A DNA stretch of 49,068 bases. It comes from an uncultured Candidatus Peribacteria bacterium (GTDB taxonomy: Bacteria; Patescibacteriota; Gracilibacteria; BD1-5; UBA2023). Shown in pieces: positions 4,393 through 45,424 of this stretch. The notes beneath the pieces are model-generated. The model made no database searches. It was not told the DNA's origin and saw nothing but the letters and a program-made list of their open reading frames with translations. The stretch is taken from NCBI GenBank assembly GCA_964518815.1, contig CAZFLS010000001.1, positions 1 through 49,068 on the forward strand, given 5' to 3'. The position numbers and the translations under genes were made by a program. The first letter of the stretch is position 1. Each line of letters opens with the position of its first letter.

Positions 4393-6096
4393 ATGAAATC
4401 AAATAATACAATTATCAATACTGATAATAGCCAAGTTTATGCTGCTATATATTGTAGAGTAAGTACAGAAGAACAAGCAAACAATAGAATTAGTCTTCAT
4501 GATCAAGAGCAAAGATGTTTAGATAGGGCTAAACAACTTGGATATATTGTTAAACCAAAACATATTTTTCGAGATGAATGAATTAGTGGAACTTCGATCG
4601 ACAAAAGACCAGGTATGATAGAACTTCTTTCATCTATTACATGATCAAAATTTCAGAAATTCAATGATATCAATATTAGTGCGATTATTTCATTGAGTAT
4701 GGATCGTATTTCCCGTAACCATTACGATTATTTATTTTTTAAAAAGCTTTTAGAAAAACATTCGGTAAAATTTATTAGTATTGAACAAGAATACATTGGT
4801 CAAAATCAAGATGATATGGTTGCTGATCTTCTTGAAAATATTATTTCTATTTTTAATGAACTGCTAGTAAAAATTACTGCTAAAAAAACTTCTTTTGCTA
4901 TGGAAAGAAAAGTTTTGGATTGATGGCTTCCTTGACAAGCACCATTTGGCTATATGAATGTAAATATTGGATCAGATGAAAAACCAGAAAGAGTTATACG
5001 TGTTAATGAAGAAGAATCAAAAATAGTCCAAGAAATGTATAATAAATACGCCCAATGAAATTGTTCTTATTCTGATCTTACAAAATATCTCAAACAAAAG
5101 GGTTTTACAAATAAAAATGGGAAGCTTTTCGCCAAAAGTTCAGTAAACAAAATTTTAAATAATATTTTTTATACAGGAAAAATTCTTTTCAAAAATAAAG
5201 TCTATGATTGAAAACATGCGCCTATAATTAGCCAAGAATTGTTTGATAAAGTTTCTCGATTAAGTAAAGAAAGAGATCAAAATTCATTTCATCAGAAGAA
5301 ATATTATCATTATCTTTTAAAGGGTTTAATATATTGCCAAAAAACAGGCAATCCTTACTCTGCTACAAGGACTTTTAAAAAAGCTAAGGATTATACAAAG
5401 GAATATTACTTTCCAATAAAAACAAAGCAACCTGAGTGAAACCTTGATTCAAAAGAATATCAATATCTTATAAAAGGTCAATATATCGAAGTGGAAGTAT
5501 TAGAAAAAATGGTTGAAGAAGAAATAAAAAAAATAAAAATAAATTCAGATTACCTAGACCAACTAACAGAAAAAGCTCGTTCTATGTTTGAGGATCAAAA
5601 TAAGGTGAATCGTCTTGAAGAATCAAATTTAAGAAAACAGATTCGGGATATACAGTTACAAATGGAAAAACTTGAAGAAAAATATATTGAAACTAAAACT
5701 ATTTCCGATGATGTTTATACTAGATTGCATTGAAAATATGAAGATAATAAAAAGAAGCTTGAAACACAGATGAATAATAAGAGAAAAATCATAGAAATTC
5801 AAAAAACTGACTTCGATAAACTTCTTAAAATTATGAAAGATCCATATACTCTTTATAAAAATACAGATACAACAGAAGGAAAAACTAAACTATTAAAACT
5901 TATTTTTGAAAAGATTTTCGTTTACAACAAAAAAATCCAGAAGGTTCAGTACACTAGTAGTATACGTGATCTTCTAGATAATCAAGCGGTTTTGTTTCGC
6001 AAAACATGGCTCCCAATAGTTGAGGAAGTTAGAAATGTTTTTAAAGAGTTAAATTGATTTGTTTACATACCAAATTTAAATCATTCCAATTTTTAA
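4393..6096 (+). CDS. large serine recombinase (integrase), 567 aa
   Basis: YCRVSTEEQ catalytic Ser motif. FRDE-G-ISGTS and GWLPGQAPFGY with Gly as TGA. VYDGKHAPIISQELFDKV recombinase-domain motif and a C-terminal coiled coil. Five ORF-track fragments share one frame, joined by TGA. Confidence 0.9.
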
Positions 6097-6112: not shown

Positions 6113-7108
6113 CTATAATTTAGAAATTTTTTGAAAAATAATCTTATATAAAGATCTAACACAAAATCAAACTTGCTTAATATTGTTTTTAATATTATTT
6201 AAAGACTCAAATTCATTTCTAGTAACAATATAGATACTTTGGGTTTTTATTTTGGATAAATTTGAATACCATTTTTTTACTCTTTTTAGATATTCTTTTG
6301 AATAATAAGGTCTTTCTTCTGGATATAATTTTTCAAGAAGTTTTTGATCTTCAAATATCTCAACTTCATCAACAATTGTAACTTTGTTATTTAAATTATT
6401 AGTTATTATTTTATCACAACCTTCAAAATATTTTGTTTTAATTCAATTATTTTGTAAATAAGAAATAAGAATGTTTTTAACAAACCAGGTTTTTCAAGAA
6501 TCAGTTTTTCATGCTAGTAGAATATTATGACCTTTTAACAAATTTATATAAATTTCATTAGCTAAGATTAATAAATTATAATCATTCTTTAATAAACTAA
6601 ACACTAATTCATTTTTAAATTCTTTATTTCTCAAAATACTTTTTCTTAATAAACCCTCATAAATAAAATTATTATTTTTAATTAATTTTATTGAATCTAT
6701 ATTTTCCTCTTCAATATTTGCATAAATCCTATTAAGTTTTAGATTTTTAAAAGAGTATTTTAAAATTAATTGGATCGCTTCTGTTGCTAATCATTTTTTC
6801 CAATATTCTTCTCATAACCAAAATAACAATCCTGCTTTTTTATTATCTATATCAAAATCTATTAAATCAATTTCTCCTATTATTTTATTAGAATCTTTTA
6901 AAATTATTCAAAAACAAAATTCTTCCTTATTATTAAATTTTTTAATCTTAGATTTAATATATTTTTTAGTCTCATTTAATGATAATCATCATCAGAACCA
7001 ATAATTTATTTTTTTATTTTTAAATAAATTAAAGATGTCTTGAGTATCTTTATCTTTCAACTGTCTTAATATTATTCTATTACTGATTAATTCAATACTT
7101 TTATCCAT
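6113..7108 (-). CDS. GNAT N-acetyltransferase (RimJ/RimL-like) fused to a small P-loop NTPase
   Basis: The N-terminal half resembles GNAT (..IGEIDLIDFD..AGLLFWLGEEYWKKGLATEAIQLIL..RIYANI..N..S). The C-terminal half has Walker A LLAGKTDSGKTW (both Gly are TGA) and Walker B VTIVDEVE. 996 nt in one frame. Confidence 0.65.
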
Positions 7109-7178: not shown

Positions 7179-7211
7179 AATAGGGCGAGTTATTAATTAA
7201 CCCACCCTATT
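7179..7211 (-). terminator. rho-independent terminator after precursor gene
   Basis: On the minus strand, AATAGGGTGGG..loop..CTCGCCCTATT is followed by a long T-rich tail (TAATTATTTTTTTGTTTTTT). Confidence 0.6.
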
Positions 7212-7259
7212 ATATTTCGTAAATACTGAAAAAATATTCTCGCAGAATTTATAAGTCCG

Positions 7260-7382
7260 CTATTTTCTACAAGAAATATTTCTCAACATTTTACAGTTTG
7301 CACGGCCCTTCGATTGTTTTGACCCGCACGCCTGGATGTTTACACCTTTTGTAACTTTTACTTTTTTGATTTGTTTTTTCAT
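7260..7382 (-). CDS. candidate RiPP precursor peptide, 40 aa, polycationic, three Cys
   Basis: AAGGAG Shine-Dalgarno sits 8 nt upstream of the ATG. Sequence MKKQIKKVKVTKGVNIQACGSKQSKGRANCKMLRNISCRK, stop TAG, terminator downstream. Starts 72 nt after the radical SAM gene stop. Confidence 0.6.
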   Translation of the reverse strand: MKKQIKKVKVTKGVNIQACGSKQSKGRANCKMLRNISCRK

Positions 7383-7454
7383 TTCATTAAACTCCTTTAA
7401 GATTTATTTTTGAACATTTTTACATCACTTTACCTATTTGTTTTTATTATATAA

Positions 7455-8762
7455 CTATTTTTCACCTCCTTTCATAAAAAACTTAGTTACATCACACTTA
7501 TGAGAAGATGGTATTCTATAATCTCCATTCTCTATCAGTGCGACACCTATACAACTATCACAAAAATCTCTTATTTTGCAATTCATGCATTTCGGTATTT
7601 CTGTAATACTAAACTTATTAAGGAATTTGTATTTATTTTTTAGAATCTCATTAAGAGGTAATTTTCTTATATTTCCCATTACTATCCTTAAGTCAAGACA
7701 AGGATATACATTGCCGTCCGAACCTATAGCTATTTGATCTTTACCAGCAAAACAAACAGTTTTGTCGTTTGCACAATTTCTGTATTTTTTTTGTTCAGTA
7801 AAACCATTGATTTTTTTTAAAAATGGTGCAAATTTTTCTTTCAATTCTTTCGCTGATAGTCTTAATTCTATCCCGTATTCTAAGCCCTTTCTGTTTGGAG
7901 TAATGTATGGAGAATAAGAAACATTAACATCCCCAATCTTTTTGATTTTTTCGTGAATTTGTTCAATTTCATCAATATTATGTTTACCAACCATTACAGA
8001 TAGCGATACCGGAATACCGTTATCAATCATTTTTTTTATGGTGTCTGATAATTTACTAAAACTATAGTTTGTAGAGGTAATACCAGAAAACCCATCTTTG
8101 GTTTCATATATTGAAATTTGTAAATCTAAAAGATTTAGGTGTTTAAGTTTTTTGATTATCGTTTCATTGATAATCGTGCCGTTGGTTTTTATTTCCAAAC
8201 AAAAACCCATTTTATTATATGCAGACAATATTTCAAGAGCATCTTTTCTTAAAAATAACTCCCCTCCTGTGAATAAAACAGATACCACTCCCAAATCTTT
8301 TAATTGACGACCCAGATTTATTATAGTGTCTTTATCTAAACCTTTCTCAGTAAAATTATCCAAATAACAAAACTTACATCTTTGATTACAGTTGTTAGTA
8401 AGCTCTATGGATGCGTTAATAATCTGATCGTTTTGAATTGCATACTCGATTAATTTATCAAAAGCATTACCTCTAACGTCTACATTATCTACTTCTTTTT
8501 TATCAGAAGTGCTTTTGGCTTTTGCTTTCTTAGATATAAATGTTGCTACTATTTTTTTAATTTCTCTGTACATCTTTTTTATCTCTTTATGATCTTTTTT
8601 TTCATAGGCATCCAAATATTTCCTTTCAAGCTTGTAGTTTGGATTACTTAAAAAAATTAAAGCAATTTCTGACAATGAACCCTCAATAAAAAGAGAAGAT
8701 AAATCTTTGGTATCAAAAATAAAAACACCGTCATTATATTTTCTTGTAATAAATCTTTTCAT
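7455..8762 (-). CDS. radical SAM / SPASM-domain peptide maturase with N-terminal PqqD-like (RRE-like) region
   Basis: Intact 435-aa ORF even in the standard code. CNQRCKFC (CxxxCxxC) and GGELFL motifs. C-terminal Cys cluster CFAGKD..DGNVYPC..CMNCKIRDFCDSC..HKC is typical of SPASM. Confidence 0.85.
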   Translation of the reverse strand: MKRFITRKYNDGVFIFDTKDLSSLFIEGSLSEIALIFLSNPNYKLERKYLDAYEKKDHKEIKKMYREIKKIVATFISKKAKAKSTSDKKEVDNVDVRGNAFDKLIEYAIQNDQIINASIELTNNCNQRCKFCYLDNFTEKGLDKDTIINLGRQLKDLGVVSVLFTGGELFLRKDALEILSAYNKMGFCLEIKTNGTIINETIIKKLKHLNLLDLQISIYETKDGFSGITSTNYSFSKLSDTIKKMIDNGIPVSLSVMVGKHNIDEIEQIHEKIKKIGDVNVSYSPYITPNRKGLEYGIELRLSAKELKEKFAPFLKKINGFTEQKKYRNCANDKTVCFAGKDQIAIGSDGNVYPCLDLRIVMGNIRKLPLNEILKNKYKFLNKFSITEIPKCMNCKIRDFCDSCIGVALIENGDYRIPSSHKCDVTKFFMKGGEK

Positions 8763-9053
8763 ATTTTGCCCCCAAATTTTTATTTTATTTTATTTTTGTT
8801 TTTAGAAATTATATGTTAATGAGCATTGTTTGACTAATTCATTATTCCTTAATAACCAATAAATTACTGTATATGTACAATAACTAAAATTTAAAAAAGT
8901 CAATACTTATTTACCTATAATTACTGATTTTTGGAGAATGAATTTGATTTCAACGACTTTTATTTTAAAAGAATAAACATTAGAAATAAATGGTTCATAC
9001 CAATCCAGAATTACCAGACTGAATTAAAAAGAGAATATCAAAGGTTAGAACCA

Positions 9054-9190: not shown

Positions 9191-9745
9191 TTAGTCATTA
9201 CCAAAATCAATAACCTCATCTTTAGGAAGTCTTTTCATAATACCGTCTGCTAATTCTTGTATTTCATTTGCTTTTGGATGTTTAGTACTTAATTCTCTTA
9301 CTTTTTGTACCATATTATCAGACATATATTCTTTCAATAACTTATAAAATCTTTGTTTTATTTCATTATTTTCAAAAGCGCTATCTAGACTTTTTTCTAA
9401 TATCATCTTTTTTTGTTCCTCATTACAATTTCAAAGTAAGTTAGGATTAACTAAAATAAATATTCTACCTATATATTCTTTTAAAAATTCAAAATCATCA
9501 AATCTAGGATAAAAAGTACTAATATTATTCATATAAAAATTTAAACGATTGAGAAAAGTATCATAAGTAAAATTAATAATTTCTAACTTACTTTCTTCTT
9601 TTTCATCTTTCATTTCTAAAGAAACAAAATTATCTCTATTATTAGTTTCAATTGTTGAAATAAAAAAATTTATATTATTAACAATATCTTTTTCTTGTTC
9701 AACTGATTCTGATATAGAAGTATGATTTGCTTGTGGCTTATCCAT
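9191..9745 (-). CDS. hypothetical protein (184 aa)
   Basis: ORF-track fragments 9431..9745 and 9191..9406 are in one frame, joined through TGA at 9431-9433. Confidence 0.55.
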
Positions 9746-9808
9746 AAAAATTATAGATTATTTAAATAAATTAATCTATTTCTTAACTCTCTATTATTAA
9801 AATTAATC

Positions 9809-10366
9809 CTATGTATCCTTAATACCACTGCTAATTAATAAATCCAAATCTTTTTTAATTTGTTCATCTTCCTTTTCTTTCTGAATTACACTATCTTTTC
9901 TATAATCCATTATTTCTACATAAGTCCGAGAGGCATTAAATAAATATTTTTCTGATAGATTAAGAAACCTTTCTTCTATTTCTTTATTTCATCAAAAAAC
10001 TTCTTTAAGAGGTTTTTTTAAATAAAAGTTTTCAAAAAGTTTAACAATATAATTTTTTACAAATATAAAATCTCAATAATCTTTATACTTATTTTTATCA
10101 ATATCTTCAATAAATTTATCAATTTTTAACATAAACATATCAAAATACCTTTTAATCCATTCTTCTTTCTCTGCTTTTAATTCAGTAATATCGCCTTTTC
10201 ATCTCAAATATCAGGGATAAAAATTCTCGCCTAAATTTTCTAAAATGGTTTTCCTAAAGAAAGTAAAGTCTCTATCTATATCCATATCATATTCTGCCTT
10301 TTCTTCTGTTTCAGCTACTATTTTAGTAGTTTTAGATAGTCAATCATTTATATTATTTACTCACAT
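9809..10366 (-). CDS. hypothetical protein (185 aa)
   Basis: ATG..TAG, 558 nt in frame with several TGA=Gly codons. Lies 12 nt downstream of the preceding gene. Confidence 0.5.
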
Positions 10367-10378
10367 AATTATAAAAGG

Positions 10379-11392
10379 TTAATAAATAGAATTTTTGAAA
10401 TTCTTTAATTCTTCAAGTGTCTTAAAATCTACTCGATTTCAAAAAACTTCTTTGCTTTTTTCACTAAATAAATCCAAAAATCTTTTTGTATTTTTATCTA
10501 TCATGTCAGGTTTAGAATTATTTTTATAATGATATTCTAAATTTTTTTCCATTTTAGCAATAGCATCATTACAGATTTCCCTAAATTTCTTTTTATCAAT
10601 TTTACTAAAAAACTTTTGTTCTATCTCACTTTCAATCTGACGATAAGATAAAACATCCAATTTTTCTACACCTTTTTCTATTGTTTTTACTTCTATTTTA
10701 GTAGGTTTTTCAACTTCCTTAATTATTATTTTTTCTTTTTTAATAGCATCAACTTCATTCTTTAACTTCTCTAATTCATTTGCAAGCTTTGTAGCATTTT
10801 CTCTTTGTTTTTGAGTATTTAAAATTTTATTAGAATCTTTTCTTAAACCATTTATTAAATATTCTAGATTTTTAGTATCAAATGTTTCTTTTAGTTTTGC
10901 TATTAAATTCTCTATAGTTTTAAAAAAATTATCATTTTTAAAAAGCAATTTTATTTTATCGTAATTTTTTTCAAATCTTTCAATTGCCTTAATTAATTTA
11001 ACACTCTTTGTTAAAACAATTCATTCTTGAGTAATTGGCAGAGCTATTAAAGGTATTTCATACCATTCAGGAATTAATAAATCCTTTACAATATTAACCA
11101 ATTCTTGTTTTGCTACTTCATCAGATGATATGTTATTATTAATCTTATTAATTATTTGTTGTTTTTTTGCTTCTAACTGAGCACTTGTCATAAAAAATTC
11201 ATCTTTATTCACAAAACCATTCTGTTTCAAATCTTTTATGTCTTTTATTTGCTCGAAAACTTCATTTAATCAAATAAAGTCTGTTTTAAGTCATATTATT
11301 TTTTGTTTCTTAATACTTTCATCAATAGATATTTTTGGTTTATCTATCTTTTGACTTTTTTCTACAACGTTAAAAGCTAATATTTCAGTCAT
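10379..11392 (-). CDS. hypothetical coiled-coil protein (337 aa)
   Basis: ORF-track fragments 11021..11230 and 10439..10948 share a frame with ATG at 11392 and TAA at 10379-10381. Heptad-like Lys/Glu-rich sequence. Confidence 0.55.
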
Positions 11393-11710: not shown

Positions 11711-12040
11711 ATGGCAAAAAATAAAAAGATGTTTTTAAAATATTTTAATACAATTATTTATAATAAAATATCTTTAATATATACTTTATTAATGCGTTTA
11801 TTAGAAAATTACTTACTCAATATACCCGTTTTATACTGATTAATCTTAGTTATATTTATTATTGTATTGTTATTTGCATTAGTTTCTTGAATTAAACTGT
11901 TAGTGAAAAATAAAATAAACTTTAATAATTTAAATAAAAAATATTACCTTATTATATTATATTGTTGTTTTTTACTTTTTTTATTATATTTTAGATATGA
12001 TCTTCTAAGATTTATTTTATATTTCTATAACTTCTCTTAA
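11711..12040 (+). CDS. possible small membrane protein (109 aa)
   Basis: ATG..TAA with two in-frame TGA codons and two hydrophobic stretches. Overlaps the 3' end of the convergent nuclease gene by 24 nt. Could be spurious. Confidence 0.25.
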
Positions 12041-12775
12041 GTTCTCAAAATATGCACAATAATCACATTCTTTACTTGAATCTGGTATAATATCACTATT
12101 TAAACATTTATGTAACTCTATAATAGTATTTTCTATCCAATTATCATTTCAAGTATAAGAAATAAGATTAATATCAAATTCTAACCTATAATCAAACGCG
12201 TCTTTGTCTGTATTTCAATTACAATATACAAAATATCCTGTATCTGAAACCTCAAGTCAGTTTTTTCTTAAAAGCCATTGATATATTTCCATTTGTCTCT
12301 TATATCAATCTTGCCAGTCTTGATTTAATTCTGTTATTTCTTCATTCTTTGAAGTGGCTTTATAATCTACTACAATATATTCTCAATTACTACTCTGCCA
12401 TAAGTCATCTATAGCTCAAAATATAAGTAAATTGGTTTTTGAATGTAAATACTGAATTCAAGTAAAATTATGTCTCCATTGTTCTAAAAGTTCGTGAGAT
12501 ACAGGTTTTGCATCAATATTATACTTTTCTATTAGAGGATGTTTTGCTCAATTGTTTCTGTATATATCAAATTCTTTCTTTAAAAGATGATCTACTGCAC
12601 TATTTAAACTAAAAGGAAATCCTGGAGGTCTTCAAATTCAAAGTCTTCTATCTAAATAAAAACATCTTGGACAATCTATAAATAAATCAATTTTAGATCT
12701 ACTTAATTTAAAAGGTTGACTATCTTTTGGGTTGTATATGTTTTTTGTGCGTTTTGGGTTATAATATTCTGACAT
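12017..12775 (-). CDS. PD-(D/E)XK nuclease, Cas4/RecB-like with Cys cluster
   Basis: N-terminal CPRCFY and C-terminal CDYC (four-Cys pattern as in Cas4). AIDDL...VVDYKAT (D..D/ExK) and RQMEIYQWL (QxxxY). Confidence 0.7.
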
Positions 12776-12787
12776 AAGGTTATTGTA

Positions 12788-15397
12788 TTATTTTATAAAT
12801 TTATCTTCAAAAGCTTTTTCAAATTCATTCTCTTTTTTTTCACTATAAAAAGGTAATCAAATAAGCTTATAATTTCAAAAGTTCATTTCTAATATTTTTG
12901 CTTTATCTTCTATTTCAAGTAAAAATTCTTGTTTCCAGCCTTCTATAGAATTTTCAAATCCTAAATTACTATCCTTAAATTGATCTCATTTCGGTTCTAT
13001 AAATATTTGATAAGTAAAAGGTTGTTTTGTAATTTTATCTTGCATAAACAATATAAAATCAGGCTCAAACCTATCTCAATTTATAAATGAATAAATAGCA
13101 ACAGTTCTTTCATTTCGGATTAAATAAATATTAGTATATTTTTTTTCTAATTTTTGTATTATATCTTCAAACATTTTTATAAAACTCTTTTCTTCACTAG
13201 TTCAATTGATTTTTTCAAAAACAAACCATTTTTTATTTACTCAAAATCATTCTACTCATAAATCCACTTTTATAGCTTTTTCAAAAGGATATTTAGAAAT
13301 ATTCTTTGATATAAAAGTTTTTGTTCATTCATACTCAACTTTTTTATCTTTAATTTCAATTTCTAAGATATTTAAAAGAGATGAAACAGCTTTTAACTTA
13401 TTTTCTATTGTTAAATTCTCTAAAACTTCCTTAGAGCTGTAAAAATCTATACTTATATTTCATAGATAATTATCCGATTTAATAAACTCATCAATACTTT
13501 GAAGTTTTCAAAGATAACTTTTAAGGTTGGAAAATTTATAGAAATCATTTCTTTGTATAGCTTTTCTTACAATTCTATTATCAATTTCTTTTATTAAAAT
13601 ACTTTTTGGTTCTTTTTCTATTTTAAAATTATCTTTCTTATCATCAAAAGCTTCTATATCATAGCTCTTTCAAGTAAATAAATCTTTAAATTCATATCTT
13701 TTAGTTTGGAGTCAGATTTTTTCAAAACTATCAATATTTGAATAATCTTTAAATTTTTTCTCATTTGTAAAAATAACTCAATTTTTATAAAATTCACTAT
13801 CTTTAAAGGATCTTTTAAATTCAAAAATAAAATCCTTTTTTTCTTTTTCATCCATAATTCAAATATCTCTTAAAGCCTGTCTTATTTCTGCAATATATAA
13901 ACTATCAAAACTTGTATGATAATAAAAAGTTTCAAGTATTTTTAAATCATCGAGCTTATTATCAAACTTTCTTTTGAATTTATTTTCTCATAAAGTTTTT
14001 TCTGTTACAAAAGGAAAATATCTTGCTCATCTTCATATGAGTTGAGCTTCGCTAATTGTTTGGGGTCAAACTTTGATTTTTCAAGTTTTTTTATCTACTA
14101 CATTACTTCTAGACTCATATAATCTTACAATATCAAAAAGATTTAAAACATCCCATCATTCATTTAGTTTTTGTACAGCAAAAACAGCTCTTATACGATT
14201 GTTTTTATCTTCAAGAGTATTAAGTAGTAATTGATTTTTTCAAGCCTCACTATCATCATTTGCACTTATACAATTTTCATGAACAAAATCATCTTTTAAC
14301 TCATTCACAAGTAAATCAAGACTTATTTTACTTTCTTCAAAAAATTCAAAAGCTTTTAATATAATTTCTGAATTAGTTTTGTTTTTTATATTTAAAATCT
14401 GATCTGGCTTTAATTCTTTTATAAGCTTATCAAAATTTATTAAATTATTTTCACTTTCTGCAACTGTTTTTTGAGCCTTAAATAAAATAACTGGTTTACA
14501 TAATATTTTATTTTTTTCTGCTACTTTTAATCTATATTGACTTAAAACAAGAGCCTGTAATATTCTGTCATTTTGTTCCATATCAGCCTTTAAAATATCT
14601 ACTTCTTTACTATATCAATCAAGTCTAAATTGTTTTAAATCATATCTGTAAATAATTTTATCAAGATATTTTTCGGATATATTTTCATTTCATAAATCTA
14701 TCGTTGCTGTAAATTCCAAAAGCATATTTTCTATATGAGAATTAAGAATTTTCATTATTGTATATTCCCATGAAGTCTTTTCTTCTTGTTCAGTTTTATT
14801 TAAATTTCAATTTTTTGTAAGTGTATTTATATGATGGGCTTCATCTGAAATTATAACTATTTTTTTGTCTTTGAATTCTTCATAAGATACCCTTCATTCT
14901 CATATTACATTCATATCAGTATGAAGTCCGTGAATAGTGGTAAATTTAATATTAATATTATCATCTGTATTACCTGAAAAATTAGAAACTTCTTTTATTT
15001 GTATTTGTTTTCCATCAAACACAATCTTATCATTGAATAAATACTTTGAAGAATTACTATTTAAAAAATTATCTTTCGTTTTTTCTATAATATTTGTCGA
15101 ATTTACAAAAAACAAGAAGTTTCTATATCATTTTTCATATAAGCTCAAAATAAGTCCAGCCATTACATAAGTTTTACCGCTTCAAGTTGCCATGTTATAG
15201 AGCAAATGAATAGGTATTTTCTTGTTTTTATAGCTGTCTATATAATATGAGAATCTAACAAAAGCTTCTTTTTGATACTCTCTCATCTGAAATTTTTCAT
15301 TCAGATTTTTTGTAATATTCAAAGGAATGTTCTTATCGAGAACATCCATTTCGGAAAGGGTATCAAATTTTTGGTAGAGAAATTGTTGTGTCGTCAT
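12788..15397 (-). pseudogene. res: type III restriction enzyme Res subunit (SF2 helicase + PD-ExK endonuclease), reading frame interrupted
   Basis: MAT-G-SGKT Walker A, VIISDEAHH (DEAH), LNEGWDVLNLFDIVRL and QLIGRGARY (motif VI). C-terminal RFEPDFILF..IFIEPKG endonuclease motif. In-frame TAA TAA at 13955-13960. Confidence 0.75.
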
Positions 15398-16087: not shown

Positions 16088-18010
16088 TTATTTATAAAAC
16101 TCTCCATTAATCTTTTTATCTTCTTTACTTACTCAATTATTTACATCTTCAATCTCGCTATAATTTACATAAAGCATATTCTTATCAAGAAGCTTGAACA
16201 AAAACTTTTTCTGATTTTCTATACTTAATTTTTCAAATTCATCTGTATTTTCATCAATATTTTTAATATTTACTTTGTAATTTATATATCATGTTTTCTT
16301 TATCTCTTCATATATTTTTATTATTTCTTTACTTGTTTTAGCTTCTTGAATTTTATCAATGAAATTTTGATTATTTTTCATAAGTTCCATATAAACAAAA
16401 TCTCATCATCAATTATTTTTAATTACCTGTTGTACTCTAGGAATAGTTACATTTCTAATATAATCCATTTGCTCAATTAATATAAATTGTCTATTTCATC
16501 AATCTTCTTTATTTAATTCCAAAACTGCATGAGCTGTTGTCCCACTACCTCAAAAAAAGTCTAATATTTTTGCTTCCTTATTTTTTGAAACTATTGCATA
16601 TATACAATCATATACATTCCATAAAGATTTTGGGAAACTAAATTTACATCAAGGAACCAAACTTTTTATAAGTTTTGTTCCATATTCATTTGCATCGTAT
16701 TTTTTATCTATCCAAACTGTTTTATATTGTCAAAAATCTTTTCAAATATCAATATCATAAACATCGTTATTAACTTTCACGTGTAATAAATCTTGTACTT
16801 CTTCTATACTTTGACGAGCATATCTCCATTTTCTTTCCACTCATTCCTTATCAATTGGATAAATTTCAACAAAATCTCAATCATGTACATTAACCTGAGG
16901 ATGAGTTCAATCGGAACAAACATTTCAAAATCAGATAACCTGTAAAGTTTTTTTGTCTGCTATAATTGAATAAAAACAATTTTTAGCATCTGTTCTTTTT
17001 GACTCTCAGCCATTATCTCTTAATCATCTATTTTTTATGTCTTCTTCAGCTATTTTTCTATTTAATACTGTTTTTTTATCTTTAGGAATAATAAAAAATG
17101 CAAATTCATGGGTATAAGAAAAGTTTGTACCTTGTACTCATCTTGGATTATGAACTATTGTAATGCAATGACTCTCATATTCTGGGAATATTTCATCAAG
17201 TAATACTCATAAATATACTTGTTCAGCTTTATCAATTGCAACAATCAATACTCATTCTTTTTTAAGTAAATTCTTTGCAATATCTAACCTATTTTTCATA
17301 AAAGTAAGCCAGGAAGAATGTTTAAATCTATTATTATATTCAAAAGTATCTCAATTTCCTCAAGTATTATAAGGGGGGTCAATATAAATAAGGTCTAATT
17401 TTCATGCAAAACTGCTCTTCAAACTATGAAGAGCTAAAAGATTATTTCATTTGATAATAAGATTATCTTTTATAGTTCAATTTTCATCTCTTTTAAATCA
17501 ATCAAGCTTGTGTTCTCAAGTCTTATCTATTCTTTTGAAATTCGTAAAAACCTTTTCATCAAGAAGTCTATCTATATCATCATTTCATAAAATTTCATTA
17601 TAAAAAACTTCATCTCTTTTAACATCTTCTTTATCTTGTCCTCAAGCCAAAATACAGTCTTTATATGGAAAACTTAAAACAACATCATTGTTGTCATTTA
17701 GGAGGTCTCATTTTGAATTTGTGAGTCCGATTTTATTTTTGAAACTTGTATAGCTATCGGGTAAAAATTCTTTATTGTTTATAAACTGAATGAATTTTTT
17801 ACTATCAAAAACTTCAAAATTACTTCAATAATTTAATGATTTAAAAAATGCTTTTTTTGTGTCTTTATTATTAAAAAGTAACCATATAAGATCCCCGTCT
17901 AATTTATCTGCTTCTTCTCTTATTACATTCTTCAATAAATCTCATTCTTGAGATATAAATCTTTTGTCTTGTTTTAATACTTCATATAAAATTTGAAATA
18001 AATTTTTCAT
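16088..18010 (-). CDS. mod: type III R-M Mod subunit, N6-adenine DNA methyltransferase (beta class)
   Basis: DLIYIDPPYNTGGNGDTFEYNNRFKHSSWLTFM (DPPY motif IV) lies upstream of ILDFFGGSGTTAHAV (motif I). 1923 nt in one frame. Confidence 0.85.
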
Positions 18011-28124: not shown

Positions 28125-31058
28125 CTATTTTTTTAAAGCTAATTCAATATTTTCCTTAGCTTTTGAAGCAATGTTTGTAGCTTCTTTTTTATATTCTGGT
28201 GTTAATAAATCTTGTGTTACTTGATAAGTTGCAATTCATAATGATGAAAAAGTTAAGACTTTTCCTGCTCCTGAACCAATCTTTGCTGCAGTAAGTATTT
28301 TTTCTCACTTAGCACTTTGTCCTAATATAAATAATCCTTCTTTTATTTTTCATAACATTGTTCAATCTTTAGCTATATCAGCTACTTTAGTTGCGGTTTT
28401 TGTTCATTTAATTGAGTTCATTCAAACTCTTGCCCATTGAGATTGTCATAAGGTTACTAGTGATGCTGCATCAGCTAATGTACCAACTACTCAAAATCAA
28501 AACCTAATTCACCTGTCTACTCGTTTTAAATTTCTTCAAGCTAAATCTTGACCTGTAAATGCAGCTTTAAAATCAAGAATTTCACTTGTAATAGGTAATA
28601 ATCAAAATCAAAGCTCAGCGGCATCGTGTTTAAAATTATCTGTTCACCATGATTGTGCAACTGTATATGCTCAAAATCATAAAAATCCTACTTTTAGTCA
28701 AAGTTTACTTGTAGAATAAACTTTTCAAGCTACTGGAACTTTAGATAATCAAGTATCAATAATAACTCAAAGATGACTTAAATTACCAAATATTGCCTGT
28801 GACAACTTGTATCTAGTAGTATTGTCAAAAGAATGTTTATTATATAAACTTTCAATATTTTTTAAATGTGATTCTACTTTTAAAGCTTGTCCTTGGTTTT
28901 TTTTCAAAATTTCTTCATCAATAATTTTCATATCATTCAATGCATTATTTCTTATTATTCATTCTGCTGAATAATCGTTTTTTACAAAAACACCTTTAAT
29001 AGAATCAATAAATCATTCTTTTCCGTTTTTTCTAGCCTTTCTTATTTCTCTTTCTGCATTTTCTGCAATAATCCTTTTATCTCTCGTAAGCTTTTCAACA
29101 AGCTTATTATATGATTCAGCTTCAGTTCTTAATTTTTCTGTAACTCAGTTTAATTCTGCAATTTGTTTAGGGTTTTTAATTACTTCATTAAAATTAGTTC
29201 TATTAGTAACACTTTCTAAAACTTTCGGATTTTCTGTCATAAATTTGTTAAATAATTTGTCTCTTAAGACAGATTCTTTTGATGATAATTCCGTTTTTGA
29301 AATAAGAGCTTCAAGTTGAGTATATTCTTTTATAAGATCTTTATTTTTACCTATTCATAATCATTCTCTTTCTATTCATTCTATTCTCTGTCTTACTGAC
29401 CAACTAGTAAAATGTTTTCATATTTCAAATCTTTTGCCTTTTATCCAATAAAACAATATAGGTGCATCAAGACTCCAATGTAAGGAACCATCTGGTTTTG
29501 TTTCTTTATCCTTTCATCATTCTGTAGTCGCAACTGCTGCTCAAGTAGCCACTGCTCATACTTCTACTCAAGATGTTTCTTTTTTTCAATCTCAAGATTT
29601 TTCAACTTTTCAGTTATTAATTAATGTTCATGTAGAATCTGGAATAATTTTAATCAAAACATCTTCTACTAGTTCATCTCTTCAAAATTTCATTCATTTA
29701 GTTTTTTCTGCTAAATACTCTTTTACTGCTTTCTCATGTTCTTTTTTTACTGGATCTTCTTTTTCAATTCCAATTTTTTCCTTTACATAGCCCTTAAAAG
29801 AATCCCATACTCATCAAATACTAAAAGATGTATTTATATATTCATTTGCTTTACATTGAGAAATTGTTTTTATTAATGCAGGATCAATTTCTTTAGTTAA
29901 TCATTTGCTTTTCTGAATTTCAGCTCAAACTTGTTTTGTATATTCATCAGTTAATTTTGAAGTTTTCATTGAATCAACTCAAAAAATTAATACTTTTATT
30001 GCATCCCATATTTGAAATTTAGCAAATAATTCAAGTGCTTTTGTTAACCTGTTTTCATCAATATTAATATTTAAAGTATCTTTAAAAAATGTCTTTACTC
30101 ATTCAGATTCAAGAGCTTTTCAAAGTCAAAATATTCACAAAACTCATCCTAAAATCCATTTCCAAGCCGATCAGCCTGGTATTTTATCAAATATTTTTGA
30201 TAAAAATCATTCCTCCTTTTTTTCTGATCATTTTGAGTTATCTTCTCACCCAAAAATTCATGAAAATATTTTATATAACCCATAAGCTCAAAGTACGGCT
30301 CATCATACAGCTAAATAAGGATGTTCTTCTGCAAATTTCATTATTGGATTTTTATCAGAAATTTCTGAAGATTTTCATTCTTTTATTTTTTCTTTTATTT
30401 CTTGAATACTAGGAACGCTTTTTTTCGCACTTGATACAACATTATTTAATTTTTCATTTAAATAAATATAAATTGGTTTATCTTTATGATTACAAATTTC
30501 TTTCAATTTTTGTAGAACAATCTTATCTGTTTTATTTAAATTAAGTGTTGAAGAATTTATATTAGACAATTCCTCAAGATTTGTTATTTTTTTTCAGTTT
30601 ACAAGCGCATTATTGATTATTGCAAAAAGAGAAAATTTAAAAAGATTAAAGGCTTTTTTTTGACTTTCTATAGATTCTGTTGGTTTTATACTTAATATCT
30701 CTTTAATTTGTCACAAATGCTCCATATCTGCTATTTCTTTAGAACTTTTTTCAGAATCTAAGCCCTCTTTTAATTGATCTCTTTTTAATTTTGCTGTTGA
30801 TTTTGTTGAAGCTTTTACAGCTTCTTTAGTAATATTTAATTTTTCTTTAATTTTTTCCTTTATTTGTCTCTCAATTTCTTGAGTTTCAATTCAAGATTCA
30901 ATAAATTTTTTCAAATTATCTAATTCTTCTATGGTAAACTCTATTGTTTGTTTAATTTCAGGAATAGACAAAGTTCCGGAAAATCAGATCTTTTCCTTTA
31001 GTTCTTCAAGTGAAGATATTTTTATTTTTTCTAATCAATTTTTATTTTCTGATACCAT
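28125..31058 (-). CDS. 977-aa membrane-associated protein with pre-toxin-TG-like motif and Gly-zipper C-terminus
   Basis: 2934 nt in frame. Helical N-terminus and several hydrophobic Gly-rich segments. LLPITSEILDFKAAFTGQDLAGRNLKRVDRG (about 28505-28602) fits the PT-TG pattern P..TG.D..G..L...R. The C-terminus has AAKIGSGAGKVLTFSSLGIATY. Confidence 0.5.
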
Positions 31059-35271: not shown

Positions 35272-37509
35272 TTAATCAATTGCTTGCAAAGCTTCCGTTA
35301 ATCTTTGATTATTATCATCAACAGTAGTATTTTGATTTGAAGTTGCACTATTTTCAGTTGGTGGAGTTTGATTTCGATATTCTATCTTTTTTCAATATAA
35401 ATCAGGAGTTCAATCATAAATATTATCAACTCTTCAATCTTCATCAAATAAATATATGCTATGAGATCTTGGATCAATTACTTTTCATAAATCAGCCACT
35501 TTCATCCATCTTTTTAATTTCTCCTCATTTCAAGCTGATCTATAAAATTGACATAAAAATTCTCTTTTTTGAGCTGTATTAAGCATATTATAATTAAAAT
35601 TTCCCAACCAAGATGTTCATCTTCAAGCTAAAGATAAAACTCAATCAAGAGCATAAGTAGCGCCTTCAAACATATGATTTATTTCATTAGCTTTTGCTGT
35701 TTTTCTTATAAAATTGATACATGAATCATATCATTTATTTACTACTCCTTCCGTTTTCTCTATTAAAGAATGTGTTCCTGTAGCTCATTTTTCAAGTAAT
35801 TTAGTAAAAGGATATAATACTCATGATATTTTTGCTAATCTAATAAAATTTTTCTTAAAAAATCATCATTCAGCTTTTTTTTCAATAAATTTATTAAATG
35901 CTGATGTTGGTGTAGAAATAATTTTTGATGTTATTTTTCAGGTTCAAGCAATACCTTTTAAAGCTAATTTTATTCATTCTTCTGATAATCTTAATATAGT
36001 GTTTACTGTCGGCATTAAATTTGTTTTAATAATTTCTCTATATTGTTCTGTTCTTCAAATTATTTTTGTAATTTCTTGTAAACCTGTTTCATTTTGTTCA
36101 AAAGGATTTCTATCATTATAAAACATTTCATTTATTGTCCAGTTTTGATTTAATAATAAATCTCTTACTCTATCAAGTTCTCATCTTCAAAAATTCCAAT
36201 CTCTATGTCATTGTAAATTATTATATCTTCTTCTCAAAATTCAGCTTAAGGCATCTCTCATTTGATTTGTTTGTGCTGGAGTGTGATATCATGTAATAGT
36301 ATCTACTGCATTTCTAACTCATTGACGTATAAATCAAACGGAATTTCTATCTAAATAAAATAAAGACTGAAATTTTTCAAAATAACTATCAAGTAATCTA
36401 TTATGAGAATCATCTTCTCATTGTCAACTTAATTCTATTACTCTCTGTCTTGCTATTCATCTCCATTTGTTTACATCTTGATCAAAAAGTTTTTCTCTAT
36501 GTCAAAATGTATCAACTTTACTTTTATTAAATCTTAATCTTGCTTCTTTTAATATTTCTCAAGAAAAATGAGTCAAAAAAAGTTTATCAAATTCCGCTTT
36601 TGATAGCCTATTTTGTCTTAATTCTTCTGCACTAACAGGAAAATCGTTTAATCTCTTTTCTAAATAGTTTTGTTCATTTTTATTATATTTGTTTCAGTTC
36701 TCAATTTGATCTTTATTTCAATCTGTATCAAAAAAATTATTTATAATTTCACCAGATTCTTTTTTTACTATATCTTGGATTTTTTTCATTTGAGTTGGAG
36801 AAAGTACTGAATCTGTATATCAATGACTTGCAACTTCATGTACTTGATTTAAAGCAATCATTAAGTTCTTATAATTTTTATCAAGATTCTCCAATGGTTT
36901 TATATTTTCTAAAAGTTTTTTATAATCATCTTTTATTATTTCTGATACATCTACTCATCTTTTTTGAAGTATAGCTATTACTTCTTTTACTTTCATAATT
37001 GATTGAGCATCTGTTTCTTCATGAAAATCAAGATTATCTGCTAAATCTTCTAAGTGATTTTCTGTGCAAAAATTTCTTATTTTATTAACTATTTTTCCAA
37101 GTTTGTTTAAATCATCCGGGTTTAATCTACATTCAAATCTATTTAAAGCTGCATGTCTAATAATATAGCTTTCAGAAAAATCCGAAGATTTTAATAATTT
37201 TGTTTCTATGTCTTCAACAAGTTCGTTAGTTCTTTGTAAAATTAGACCTCTAGGGCTTAAATCATTTGTTGTAAGCGATATAATATAGTTTATTTTATCT
37301 TTAAGAGATTTACGTTTTTTCAATTCTGCTATTCTAGTCTGATTTCATCTACACTCTTCTTCTAATAAATTATTAACAAGACCTCTCATTCTAATACTTC
37401 AATCTCATCATTCAAGAAGTGATATTAATCTATCAGATCAATCAGATATAGCTGAATTATTAGTAGAAAGCGCATTTTGAGCTGTTATTTCAGGGATATT
37501 TAATGTCAT
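35272..37509 (-). CDS. 745-aa hypothetical protein
   Basis: ATG at 37509 is in frame with ORF-track 36955..37323. Ends ..NQTPPTENSATSNQNTTVDDNNQRLTEALQAID then TAA at 35272-35274. Confidence 0.5.
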
Positions 37510-39043: not shown

Positions 39044-42000
39044 TTATTTAAAATCAGATTTATAATCTATATCAACTTTTGCATCGGGAGCATTAAATTT
39101 TTTTGGACTTTTATGATAATCTAACTGAGCTTTTTGAAAGTCATTTATCTTTTGTATAATTTCTTCTTTTTTTGGTATGTCGTTAAAAGTATATTTCTCA
39201 TCACTAAACACTCAGGTTCAATTAAATTCTAAAACATATTTGCCGTCTTTTTTATATAATTCAATACCACTATTATAAGTATTATTTTTTACTCCCCCTT
39301 GTCAATCCGGTGAAGAATAATTTAAACTCCATTTAGCCACTTCTACCTTTTTTCAATTTTCAAGACTCTTCTCTAATTTTGTTTTGAATTCTGCTGCTTC
39401 CTTTTCTGCTGGTGTTGGTCCTTTTGGTTCTTCTGCTACTGGCACTTCTGGTTTTTTTACTGGTGGTTCCTCTGGTTTTTTCTCAGTTATACCTAAATAC
39501 TTTTTAGCATTTGTATCAATTTTTGCTGCCATAGCAACAAAATTTCAACCTTCTATTTCTGCAAATTTAACATTATTTACCACTTTATATTTTCAAGTAA
39601 GATTAACTTTTTCACCTTTATTTAATTGCGGTCAAACTATTTCTCATTTTGCATTTCTTACATTCAAGTTATTAACAAGAACTTCTGCTTCACCTTTTGG
39701 TCAGTCTTCTTTTAATTCAACTTTACTAAAATCGTGCTCTTTATTGCTAGGTTTTTCTTTGCCTGTAATAGATCGTTTTTTCTTATCTGTACCCGGTTCT
39801 GGTTTTGGTATTACTGGTGGAACTTGAGGAGTTTCCTGAACAATACCATTTCTCAATCTTGTTGAATCTACAGGGAATGTATTATCTAAAGTATCTCTTG
39901 CAAGTAAGACTCAAGCTCAACCTACTCAATAAGCAATGTAAGGCAAAATACTTCGTCATCTTCTTAATGATGGAATTGGTTCTGGGCTTGGAGTTGGATT
40001 TTGATCTCTCCATTTTTGATCTGTAATTAGATATGTTTCTGGATTTGGAGTTGATTCTGAGTTTCTCACTACTCTATTATTAATTTTTTCATTTTGTGCT
40101 CTTCTATTTCTTTGTTTTTCTCAAATTCTTTCTAATGCTTCAATTTCTTTCTGAATTTTTTGTGTTGCTTGTAAATCTCTTATTCAATCAACAATATCAT
40201 CTGCTCTTCTTTCATATACTAGATCTCTTCATTCTGATATATTTTGTATTGTATCTGGATTTTTATTATTAATAAAATCCTGTTCATTAATTAGTTTACT
40301 CTTTTCCAAAGGTCGTCAATTAGCATCAACTTTTTGAATATATATTCTTCATGACACATCACTTTTCATTATATCATAATGCGTTTGTCAATCAGGAGTA
40401 TATTTTATTACTACATCTTCGGGAATTTCATTAAAAACAGTTTTTATATCTTGAGTTAATATTTTACCATCTTTTCAACGTACAGAATTAATAAAACCTT
40501 GTTTTTCTACAGGATAATAAATAGATCTATCAAAAATAACTTCTTTTACATTACCGTAATGTTTGGTACCAATATAAATCTCTGGTTCAATTATTTCACT
40601 ACTATTAGGCTTTTTAATTTCGAGAATTTGATTATAAAAAACTGTGTCAGTGTTTTTATTATTCTGAAATTCTTCTACTTTAAATTTACCAGATTCTTTT
40701 GTAATTAATAAATAATTTCAGCCAACAGTTTTAGTTCCTAATAAAGCAGTTTCACCTTCCATAAGATTATTTAGTTTTAAATTAATTTCGGTTAGAGCTG
40801 CTTCAATATTTTGAGTACCTTCAAGATTAATTTTTTCTGATATTTTAGTTCATCTTGATTCTCAAACTATTCAATTCTCCATTAATATTCTCATTTCTTT
40901 ATAATCAAATTTTTTTCTTAAAATACTAACCTTTTTGGTAATTTCTTTTTGGTTATAGTTATAAACTCATTTTCCTTCTCAAATTTTGTGTGCTTCTAAA
41001 ATTGCCTGTTTTTGTTCTTCTGACAATGTTTTTCATAATAATTCTTCTGCTTTACTTAATCTTGATTCATCAGTTAATCGAGCATTTTTTTCAACTTCAG
41101 CAGGTTTTATTCCAGATCTCTTATATGCTTTTTGTACATTTAAATCATATTGTATCTTTTGTAATTTTAATTGTTCTTTTCAAATTTTTTCTACTTGTTT
41201 TTCTACTTTTTTCTGTCTTCTAGTTTCAAGTACACTTTGTGATTTATCTTTTAATTTTCCTAATCAGTTTTTAATTTTATCTGTAATTTGAAATTTAAAC
41301 TTACTGTCAGTTCTCGTAGTTACTTCTCATATTCAAGCATTTTCATTTACTTCAACTTTTAAATCACCTGATTTTAATATACTAAATCAACCAGCAAATT
41401 TTTCTAAAGCTGGTGAAGCAAAATGTAATCATCATCACATAATAGCCATAAGCGCTAATTCTTGTCATATTTCAGTTATTTCTTTCTCATTAAAAGCATT
41501 TAAATCTCAAGGTAACATAAAGTTAATTCCTGTATAAAGCGCTGGTCAAGTTAATCATTGTTTAATTAATCAATCTACAGCTTTTCTTTGAATTAATTTT
41601 TCTCAAGTTTCAGGAAATATTTTATATACTCTATTAACTAATTTTTCTGCAGCTCAAAAGGATCCAAACATTATTGAATTCGTAATAACTTCTTTTCACC
41701 AATCTGGAGAATTCATAAACCATTCTTGATTCCTAATCCATTTATGTACGGCTGTAAAAGTAAGTCACTCAGTTCATGCTTTTACTACAAATCGGCCAGC
41801 CTGAATTAATTTTCATCTTCTAGTTGTAGACTCTATTGTCCTTACAGTATCTATAATCTGTTTGCCTCTAATACTTTTTCTAGTAATCTCTTCTGTTTTA
41901 ATTGTAATTCAAGCAATCCTTTGAAGTTTTGAAGATGCAGCAAATCATCTTAATAATAATCCTCCTCATAATCTAGCTACTCATCAAGCTATTCATCATG

Positions 42001-43081
42001 AAATTAGCATTGCAGGAACATCATAAACCATAAATCAAATGGCTTGTTGTTGTCATTTTAAAGATAATGTAGTCCATTCATCTTTAATATCTGTAGAATT
42101 TTTAAATGTTTCCCATATTTCTTTTTGACTATCTGGCACTGAAATTCAACCATTTTCTCAAATTACATATTTACCAACATACTTTATTGTTAATTGATCT
42201 TTTATAAATTTTTTATGTAACTCATTATACAAAGTCACTAATTGTTCTTCACTTGTTATATTTGGATTAGTTTTAATAATTTTATCTTTATTTTTATTCC
42301 ATTCATTAATTGCCATTTTTCTAATTTCTCAAGCTGTTTTTTGCATTTGTTTTTCTATGTTTTTATTAATTTCCTGTACATGAGTATCACTTAATTTATT
42401 TTTTCAAGCCAAAAAAGTATCTGCCATTTCTTCAATAAAAGTATCCGTAATTTGAACTTCTCAAACATTTTCTTTTATTACTTTTAGTCAAGCAGCTTTT
42501 ATATTATTTGACCAAGAAGCGTTTTTATTAAAAAATGAGTAGAATTTAGAAAGAATATCTTTATCTGAAATATTATTTTTAAGAATATTCCAAGCTTCAG
42601 GTCATGAAATGTTTTTATTTTTTAATTTATTTATACATATATCAAGTTCTATAATAGCTAATTTTTTAGATTCTTTATTGTACCATTTTATAGAGCTCCA
42701 TTTTGAAGAATCTCTAATTTCATCTCTAACTGCCTCTATTGACCTTACTAAATATCTTACTCACTCATTTCAATTATTTTGAACTTCTCTTTTAAGAATA
42801 GTTGTATCTTTTTTTGCTTCTTCAATAGTTATTTGTTTTAATGACTCAAATTTTTCATCAATTTTTTCTAAACTTATATCTATATTACTTAAAAAATATA
42901 TTATTTTTTGCACTAAAATATTAAATTGTTCTGGAGGAAGAGTCTTATTACTATCTAAATATTTTTCCGCTTTTTCCTTATATGACTTCGCTAAAGTTCA
43001 TCATACTTCCATTCAATTTCTTTCAGTTTTGGCATTTCTTATTTCATTAAACCAATTTTTGTTATGCAATTCTGTACCCAT
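39044..43081 (-). CDS. 1345-aa membrane protein with SH3b-like segment, hypothetical
   Basis: 4038 nt in frame. Central Gly-rich hydrophobic segments (AMLISGGIAGGVARLGGGLLL, LALMAIMGGGLHF), Pro-rich linkers, and EVLVNNLNVRNAKGEIVGPQLNKGEKVNLTGKY..FAEIEGGNFVAMAAKI (SH3b-like, about 39515-39715). Confidence 0.5.
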
Positions 43082-45350: not shown

Positions 45351-45424
45351 AAAATAAAACATTAAAAAAATATTATCAAAAATAAGATAACATATAATGC
45401 ATAAAAATGCAAAAAATGAGAACA

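Follow-up and report, generated by a model that had tools for sequence, protein, structure and literature searches.

What does a radical S-adenosylmethionine (SAM) enzyme act upon in a bacterium of the Candidate Phyla Radiation (CPR, or Patescibacteria), and is the very short open reading frame (ORF) that follows its gene the substrate? The question is raised by a 49,068-nucleotide stretch of DNA from an uncultured Candidatus Peribacteria bacterium (positions 1 to 49,068 of contig CAZFLS010000001.1, here called the window), whose minus strand carries a radical SAM/SPASM enzyme gene at 7455..8762 (435 amino acids, ATG start, TAG stop, no TGA codon) and, separated from it by exactly 72 nt (7383-7454), a precursor-type gene at 7260..7382 that encodes a 40-amino-acid peptide (MKKQIKKVKVTKGVNIQACGSKQSKGRANCKMLRNISCRK; TAG stop). 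An earlier reading of the letters alone (the original prediction) had proposed that the two make up a minimal locus for a peptide made by the ribosome and modified after translation (RiPP), and the coordinates, spacing, Shine-Dalgarno sequence, terminator and lengths of the two ORFs that it gave are all correct. Comparison with related loci indicates that the pair is a real, conserved and undescribed peptide-modification cassette that is essentially restricted to CPR bacteria, and the best explanation appears to be that it is mobile and encodes a ribosomal peptide along with the radical SAM enzyme that modifies it, as a previously undescribed and CPR-centred family. We put at about 70% the probability that the cassette is of the RiPP type and that the enzyme acts on the peptide encoded beside it, for the reasons given below.

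Related loci were retrieved from genomes (15 loci) and metagenomes (44 loci). Full-length homologues of the enzyme number about 45 (420-440 amino acids, 34-49% identity), and those with names come nearly all from Patescibacteria (Zambryski-, Parcu- and Gracilibacteria and others). The original prediction had staked itself beforehand on a conserved small ORF beside homologous enzyme genes, and it survived this comparison: a homologue of the peptide ORF adjoins the enzyme gene in every locus that extends past the enzyme gene, and 36 distinct peptides are known in all. An enzyme of this kind with a co-conserved small cysteine-containing peptide is the RiPP-type architecture that had been proposed. 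The peptides are 29-44 amino acids long and share the following anatomy: a leader of 17-21 residues, which is basic and includes a beta-strand-like stretch resembling [KR]-x-[KR]-[VI]-x-[VI], is followed downstream by a core C-x-[STG]-K-[HQK]-S-K-x(2-4)-C, in which the first cysteine (Cys1), the lysine at +3 and the serine at +5 are invariant, the lysine at +6 is present in 35 of the 36, and the second cysteine (Cys2) lies at +9 to +11. A third cysteine, within a …[PS]-C-R-x-x tail, is present in 28/36; eight peptides have just two cysteines, so three cysteines, which the original prediction had emphasized, are not a trait of the family. Net charge ranges from +6 to +13, tryptophan occurs in none of the 36, and there are 0-2 acidic and usually no more than two aromatic residues. 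The window peptide has the composition that had been reported for it (10 Lys and 3 Arg, no Asp or Glu, no Phe, Trp or Tyr, and cysteines at positions 19, 30 and 38). Its leader comprises amino acids 1-18 (MKKQIKKVKVTKGVNIQA) and its core reads C19-G-S-K-Q-S-K-G-R-A-N-C30-K…C38-R-K; 18 residues ahead of Cys1 is a normal leader length, and the description of the peptide as leader-poor was mistaken.

Could the enzyme instead be a non-peptide radical SAM protein (of the cofactor, anSME or haem type) and the small ORF either a chance reading frame or non-coding (a terminator or a leader RNA, for instance)? AT-rich DNA commonly holds short ORFs, and the NCBIfam models NirJ2, AhbD and MoaA score only slightly below the best-scoring model, StsB, on the enzyme. 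The nucleotide sequences effectively refute this idea as follows: the codons of the invariant peptide residues vary synonymously (TGC/TGT, AAG/AAA, TCC/TCA/TCG/TCT) among 33 distinct nucleotide versions, so conservation is at the protein level and the ORF is protein-coding. In addition, a GGAGG-type Shine-Dalgarno sequence precedes nearly all of the 35 homologous peptide ORFs that were tabulated (in the window it is AAGGAG at 7392..7397 on the minus strand, 9 nt 5' of the peptide ATG), this sequence and the ATG are kept in all lineages even though GC content ranges from 24% to 63%, and the small ORF travels with the enzyme despite a change in gene order, which is usually enzyme-peptide-ATPase (the ATPase is described below) and is peptide-ATPase-radical SAM in three loci (L019/20/23). 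These comparisons indicate that the small ORF is under protein-level selection, and we regard the chance that it is spurious as almost negligible. One locus carries a broken copy: in L001 (6287-6413, on a contig shared with L022 and L065) a 1-nt insertion after the K+3 codon splits the peptide gene (…CSSK before the break, HSKAGAGCKMAQLVPCRKN after it), and a mistake in assembly, a pseudogene or a frameshift may account for this.

The peptide family has gone unnamed. Six of the sequences matched no model in Pfam or NCBIfam, PADLOC gave no match to the window peptide, and the database entries that exist are unnamed or labelled 'hypothetical protein'. A phmmer search with the 40-amino-acid peptide against 1.84 billion representative proteins returned only the query itself, which is uninformative at that length, and a full-text literature search with the core motif strings and for CPR/Gracilibacteria radical SAM peptides found nothing relevant.

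What kind of enzyme accompanies it? Pfam finds Radical_SAM (PF04055) at amino acids 119-272 (E = 1.4e-22, 81 bits against a cut-off of 29.5) and SPASM (PF13186) at 337-396 (E = 4.6e-11, 43.3 bits against a cut-off of 21.5). The CxxxCxxC motif, C125-x3-C129-x2-C132, is invariant in 41 aligned sequences and places the protein in the radical SAM superfamily. Seven further conserved cysteines lie in the SPASM region (amino acids 337-423): C337-x12-G350-x4-C355, C392-x2-C395-x5-C401-x2-C404 and C423. The SPASM seven-cysteine motif is CX9-15GX4C … CX2CX5CX3C … C and ligates two auxiliary clusters; the enzyme is a SPASM protein in which one cysteine spacing departs from this textbook form (x2 instead of x3). 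Both the radical SAM motif and the C-terminal cysteine cluster of the original prediction are thus confirmed by Pfam and by the conserved cysteines. In the AlphaFold2 model (predicted local distance difference test score, pLDDT, 90) an N-terminal domain is followed by a disordered linker (80-97), the alternating beta/alpha radical SAM core and the SPASM region. The N-terminal domain (about amino acids 1-80) has strands at 4-9, 12-17 and 22-27 and helices at 33-39, 47-50 and 55-77, and a RiPP recognition element (RRE) or PqqD-like domain is an N-terminal winged helix with three beta-strands and three helices. In Foldseek the top matches of this model are RiPP maturases that carry an RRE (SuiB at 3e-16, SkfB, CteB), followed by anSME, EpeE and PqqE, and the full-length alignments to SuiB, CteB and SkfB include the N-terminal domain.

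Sequence profiles point in the same direction but at a distance. A profile search of the PDB has the sactisynthase SkfB as the best match (6.5e-26), with PqqE next (2.3e-13) and SuiB at 2.1e-8. In NCBIfam the top match is the sactipeptide maturase StsB (NF045574; 98.7 bits against a cut-off of 625), below which come NirJ2, AhbD, ScmE, WgkB, PqqE (70.1 against 381 bits), PapB (NF047865; 68.7 against 340), SkfB (TIGR04403; 65.8 against 300) and AlbA (NF012164; 60.9 against 850, E = 7.6e-17), all far under their cut-offs; MftC scores 54.3 against 265 bits, and no anSME model is among the best 25 NCBIfam matches. The enzyme most resembles, to judge from these comparisons, an RRE-SPASM-type peptide maturase in kind, and it is a member of no curated family.

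How, then, does the cassette relate to characterized systems? Sactipeptide systems (SkfB/SkfA, StsB (=GggB)/streptosactin and AlbA/subtilosin) share with it an N-terminal domain (of the peptide-binding type in theirs and putatively so in the window enzyme), C-terminal auxiliary clusters and an adjoining gene for a short cysteine-containing precursor, and their maturases are the best sequence matches of the window enzyme (above). The core C-x-x-K-[HQK]-S-K…C is unrelated to theirs, however, the peptide is polycationic, there is no protease, the partner is a small AAA+-like ATPase, and the cassette is found in CPR bacteria whereas sactipeptide systems are found in Firmicutes. The bridges in streptosactin are short-range, from Cys to Ser or Gly (PMC8172795). 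With maturase scores under the cut-offs and a peptide that fits no NCBIfam or Pfam model, the cassette is not a member of the sactipeptides. Streptide-type SuiB/SuiA provides the best overall structural match, full-length and including the N-terminal domain, but sequence similarity to SuiB is weak and SuiB makes a Lys-Trp C-C crosslink; with no tryptophan in the 36 peptides and no aromatic residue in the window peptide, the cassette is not of the streptide or KxxxW cyclophane type either. PqqE, MftC and anSME are significant matches and are likewise SPASM proteins with two auxiliary clusters, but the motifs of PqqA (E-x3-Y), MftA (C-terminal V-Y) and sulfatases (C/S-x-P-x-R) are absent, the scores are under the cut-offs, and there is no sulfatase, pqq or mft gene among the scanned genes that flank the cassette.

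Ranthipeptide/SCIFF pairs (CteB/CteA, PapB/PapA) likewise consist of a SPASM maturase (in their case one with an RRE) beside a short cysteine-rich precursor of about 45 amino acids, and CteB is among the top structural matches of the window enzyme. Such pairs often lack a dedicated protease or transporter. Their precursors have about six cysteines and motifs of the Cys-x3-Asp/Thr type, whereas the present family has two or three cysteines and 0-2 acidic residues (none in the window peptide), and has no Cys-x3-Asp or SCIFF motif; as far as we know an ATPase partner is absent from SCIFF pairs. Together with the PapB score given above, this places the cassette outside that family as well. The original prediction had considered the absence of a transporter and protease to be unlike the known RiPPs, but SCIFF, which is itself defined as a peptide-enzyme association (PMC8172795), is another such case of a peptide plus an enzyme.

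We infer that the enzyme modifies the peptide from their co-occurrence and from the coding selection on the peptide, but which modification would it install? By analogy with its nearest relatives, the enzyme may install cysteine thioether crosslinks, to which we assign slightly less than even odds; thioethers are favoured because of the proximity to SkfB and StsB and the two invariant cysteines. This proximity agrees with the thioether chemistry that the original prediction had thought fitting, and suggests it rather than establishes it. The same architecture could alternatively carry out other chemistry within the K-x-S-K core, namely epimerization (as YydG/EpeE do), a Lys/Ser C-C or ether crosslink, or formylglycine formation from Cys or Ser (as in anSME): EpeE/YydG, anSME and PqqE all lie significantly close to the enzyme in structure and in sequence, K+3, S+5 and K+6 are conserved as well as the two cysteines are, and the enzyme lies under every curated family cut-off. 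Against this, the sactisynthases are nearest by sequence, the two invariant cysteines suit thioether donors, the lack of tryptophan and scarcity of aromatic residues exclude Lys-Trp-type cyclophanes, and a sulfatase motif in the form C/S-x-P/A-x-R is also absent from the peptides. We therefore consider chemistry other than thioether formation unlikely, though a serious contender.

The locus is not the minimal two-gene unit that had been proposed. All-against-all clustering of the flanking ORFs shows that a P-loop ATPase of about 150 amino acids directly follows the peptide in 38 of the retrieved loci. Its family motifs are a Walker A G..DSGKT[WY]F, a Walker B [IV][IV]DE[VA]E, an E-K-P-Y-Y-S..Y motif and I-[FY]-[IV]-[IL]-T-R-N, in which the R is invariant. 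A profile search gave 65 stand-alone relatives (99-208 amino acids, most of them 140-165), the few named ones being 'hypothetical protein'; the window ATPase alone as the query gave two matches. No Pfam or NCBIfam model matches the ATPase at its cut-off, and a profile search of the PDB finds the AAA module of midasin at 2.9e-9; its fold is probably AAA+-like. In the window this gene lies at 6113..7108 (minus strand; 331 amino acids) and is a fusion: a RimJ/RimL-type GNAT domain (Acetyltransf_3, amino acids 11-148, 6.1e-28) occupies the N-terminal part, and the conserved ATPase, with Walker B IVDEVE, is in frame in the C-terminal half (about amino acids 178-331). None of the 65 ATPase relatives is long enough to hold such a fusion.

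The window ATPase is hidden under translation table 11 because it contains 10 in-frame TGA codons for glycine. Read with table 11 the 49-kb window has just 21 ORFs of 80 amino acids or more, but with TGA read as sense it is densely filled with long ORFs, 3-7% of whose codons are TGA. Both glycines of the window Walker A, AgKTDSgKT, are TGA (6494-6496 and 6509-6511, minus strand) and align with G..DSGKT in the homologues, so the genome reads TGA as glycine rather than tryptophan (code 25), in agreement with the NCBI label of an identical partial protein, 'Candidatus Gracilibacteria bacterium'. Across 32 window genes TGA accounts for 69% of glycine codons, but in the enzyme gene it accounts for none of 26 (P ~6e-14) and in the peptide gene for none of three. 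The enzyme gene also has the highest third-position GC content of 25 window genes (0.22; the others are 0.08-0.18) and the poorest fit to window codon usage of the 25, even when glycine is ignored. The simplest reading of this foreign codon signature is that the enzyme-peptide segment was recently acquired or replaced horizontally, the donor presumably using the standard code; alternatively, TGA may be avoided here for the sake of function.

We call the cassette mobile because of this signature and because its wider neighbourhoods differ: genes outside the triad are different in every lineage. In the window they include a putative Type III restriction-modification system, a PD-(D/E)XK nuclease and a large serine recombinase, and elsewhere they include CBASS (L017/18), a giant Eco57I-helicase protein (L016), NifS/NifU/PFOR genes (L065), the rpsL-tuf operon (L066) and a HepT/MNT toxin-antitoxin pair with a histidine kinase (L067). 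A role in anti-phage defence was considered and rejected, since the link is not systematic and defence genes are near the cassette in just three contexts, those of the window, L017/18 and L016; PADLOC gave only generic, viperin-type radical SAM core matches on the cassette. A phage origin was likewise set aside, there being no relative in IMG/VR contigs. No convincing direct or inverted repeats that might be element boundaries occur at about 3.5-12 kb, only AT-rich chance matches. The large serine recombinase gene (Resolvase + Recombinase + Zn_ribbon_recom; 4393-6096, plus strand) lies 17 nt away from where the GNAT-ATPase gene ends and has the second most atypical codon usage in the window; no att-like sites or flanking repeats were found around it.

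Two occurrences are in non-CPR bins. A Rhodospirillales bin (L015, GC 63%) has the enzyme-peptide pair followed, by eye, by a large STAND-like NTPase/TPR protein in place of the small ATPase, and a Bacteroidota bin (L008) has the enzyme gene only, on a contig that stops just past it. These represent either transfer out of the CPR or binning errors. In two lineages a second, different radical SAM/SPASM gene is found upstream of the cassette, at a distance of 1-2 kb (L032, 717-2144; L068, 4850-6094).

Is the product exported, or does it work inside the cell? In the Peregrinibacteria loci, whose peptides are short, the ATPase is absent, and in all of them the gene directly downstream of the peptide, on the same strand, is an ABC_membrane+ABC_tran exporter; L004 has the gene line histidine kinase-ABC-enzyme-peptide-ATPase, and OEP/ACR_tran efflux genes lie downstream of the cassette in L016. 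Peptide export is therefore plausible in some lineages and is not universal, and the absence of a transporter noted in the original prediction holds for the window but not for these other loci. A membrane histidine kinase (HisKA/HATPase_c; HisKA_7TM in L067) was seen no more than a few kb away from the cassette in L003, L004, L005, L009, L044-47 and L067, which hints at regulated or signal-linked expression and could also be generic kinase similarity.

The modified peptide might alternatively be an intracellular small protein, either a polycation that binds nucleic acid or the ribosome or a peptide-derived cofactor, with the AAA+-like ATPase as its partner or loader. A protease is lacking from all loci and a transporter from most of them and from the window, the charge of the peptides is like that of ribosomal proteins, the ATPase weakly matches the DNA-binding initiator/loader AAA+ clade (Orc1/Cdc6, DnaC and IstB; Foldseek, E >= 2e-3), and the fused GNAT is of the RimJ/RimL type that acetylates ribosomal proteins. 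The exporters of Peregrinibacteria and L004 do not fit an intracellular product, a patchy and mobile distribution disfavours a core cellular role, the extra enzymes of the PQQ and mycofactocin pathways are absent here, and the peptide matches no ribosomal-protein family in Pfam or NCBIfam. An intracellular role seems to us distinctly improbable on balance.

Several observations weigh against the reading of the cassette as a maturase with its substrate peptide and a helper ATPase. As the enzyme reaches no curated family cut-off, its chemistry would not be confidently transferable from any relative. Its N-terminus, which the original prediction had called PqqD-like, has the predicted three-strand, three-helix fold but gives no match to PqqD (PF05402) or RRE hidden Markov models, whether searched as the whole protein or as an isolated N-terminal profile (PDB, Pfam). 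The acceptor residue is not fixed by conservation, in that the histidine at +4 is replaceable by glutamine or lysine and the third cysteine is absent from the eight peptides mentioned above. No protease that could remove the leader to give a putative 'mature product' is present anywhere in the cassette; no ABC exporter or histidine kinase homologue is present in the window, and no protease or transporter is recognisable by Pfam among the scanned genes flanking the cassette. We know of no precedent for an ATPase in radical SAM RiPP pathways, and the model of this one (AlphaFold2, pLDDT 94) has no structural matches stronger than the weak ones above. Finally, TGA is used normally in the GNAT-ATPase gene (10 of 15 glycine codons) and is absent from the enzyme gene, so the triad does not have a single simple history here. 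The original prediction is thus supported in part: it was right about the kind of system, a radical SAM/SPASM enzyme with a peptide substrate, and wrong to call it minimal, leader-poor, tri-cysteine and unlike other RiPPs.

Even so, we favour the substrate reading, and the cassette might operate as follows. The basic 17-21 N-terminal residues of the precursor, with their [KR]-x-[KR]-[VI]-x-[VI] stretch, would be bound by the RRE-like domain of the enzyme, probably as a beta-strand. The enzyme, with one SAM cluster and two auxiliary clusters, would then abstract hydrogen within the invariant C-x-x-K-[HQK]-S-K…C core, and the most likely outcome would be one or more intramolecular cysteine thioether crosslinks of the sacti or ranthi type, such as ones that join Cys19 and/or Cys30 to a K-Q-S-K residue. 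The AAA+-like ATPase could serve as a third component in peptide handling, presentation, release or regulation, and in this genome the RimJ/RimL-type GNAT could acetylate lysines or the N-terminal amine of the peptide, either to tailor it or to protect the producing cell. Release or export of the product is probable, given the ABC exporter linkage, in some lineages at least, and the product would act as a polycationic effector or signal. A more adventurous possibility is that the triad is a mobile three-component system in which an undescribed crosslink (for example Cys to Lys or Ser within C-x-x-K-x-S-K) is made and the target onto which the ATPase loads the product is a nucleic acid, ribosomal or in a host cell, so that the product would be an effector of episymbiotic CPR bacteria against hosts, competitors or phages and not a classical secreted bacteriocin. 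We rate this as a long shot; if it were true, the TGA-free coding of enzyme and peptide would be the mark of a module passed between lineages whose genetic codes differ.

The remaining features of the region can be described briefly. An intrinsic-terminator-like hairpin of 14 pairs with a T-run lies 3' of the peptide gene (7179..7211, minus strand), and two such sites were seen in 3.4 kb where 0.4 are expected. The site TAGTCA-17-TATAAT upstream of the radical SAM gene (8808..8836, minus strand) is promoter-like by consensus only; such sites show no excess in the AT-rich DNA here (15 seen against 23.7 expected). Upstream of the radical SAM gene are three consecutive genes (9191-11392, minus strand) for acidic or coiled-coil-like proteins of 184, 185 and 337 amino acids, which have no significant Pfam match and none of which lies beside the cassette in other loci; in the gene at 9191-9745 TGA is used in just one of four glycine codons. 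Farther on are a PD-(D/E)XK/Cas4-like nuclease (12017-12775, minus strand; checked with Pfam) and near it, by eye, a putative Type III restriction helicase (12788-15397, minus strand) and a putative DNA methyltransferase (16088-18010, minus strand). Translation of 28125-31058, 35272-37509, 39044-43081 and 43215-45362 (all minus strand) gives a run of very large glycine-rich (TGA-rich) proteins of 715-1345 amino acids.

Specialised peptide biosynthesis is, by most accounts, scarce or lacking in CPR bacteria. One survey reports that its Patescibacteria metagenome-assembled genomes had no biosynthetic gene clusters (PMC11613949). At the family level, the present cassette would add a system largely confined to these bacteria, with a new precursor motif, an enzyme outside the curated maturase families and an ATPase without annotated relatives. 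New radical SAM-peptide pairs often surface in genome mining, which tempers the novelty; what adds to it is the taxonomic setting, together with a motif that is sharply defined, a third component and a signature related to the genetic code. The codon signature of the enzyme gene in addition illustrates cleanly how genes flow into a genome that uses code 25, and since neither the enzyme nor the peptide gene contains TGA, both should be expressible in E. coli without recoding, which makes the proposal directly testable. If the chemistry or the target proves to be new, the cassette would represent an additional RiPP class and would provide a handle on the interplay of these ultra-small episymbionts with their hosts or competitors.

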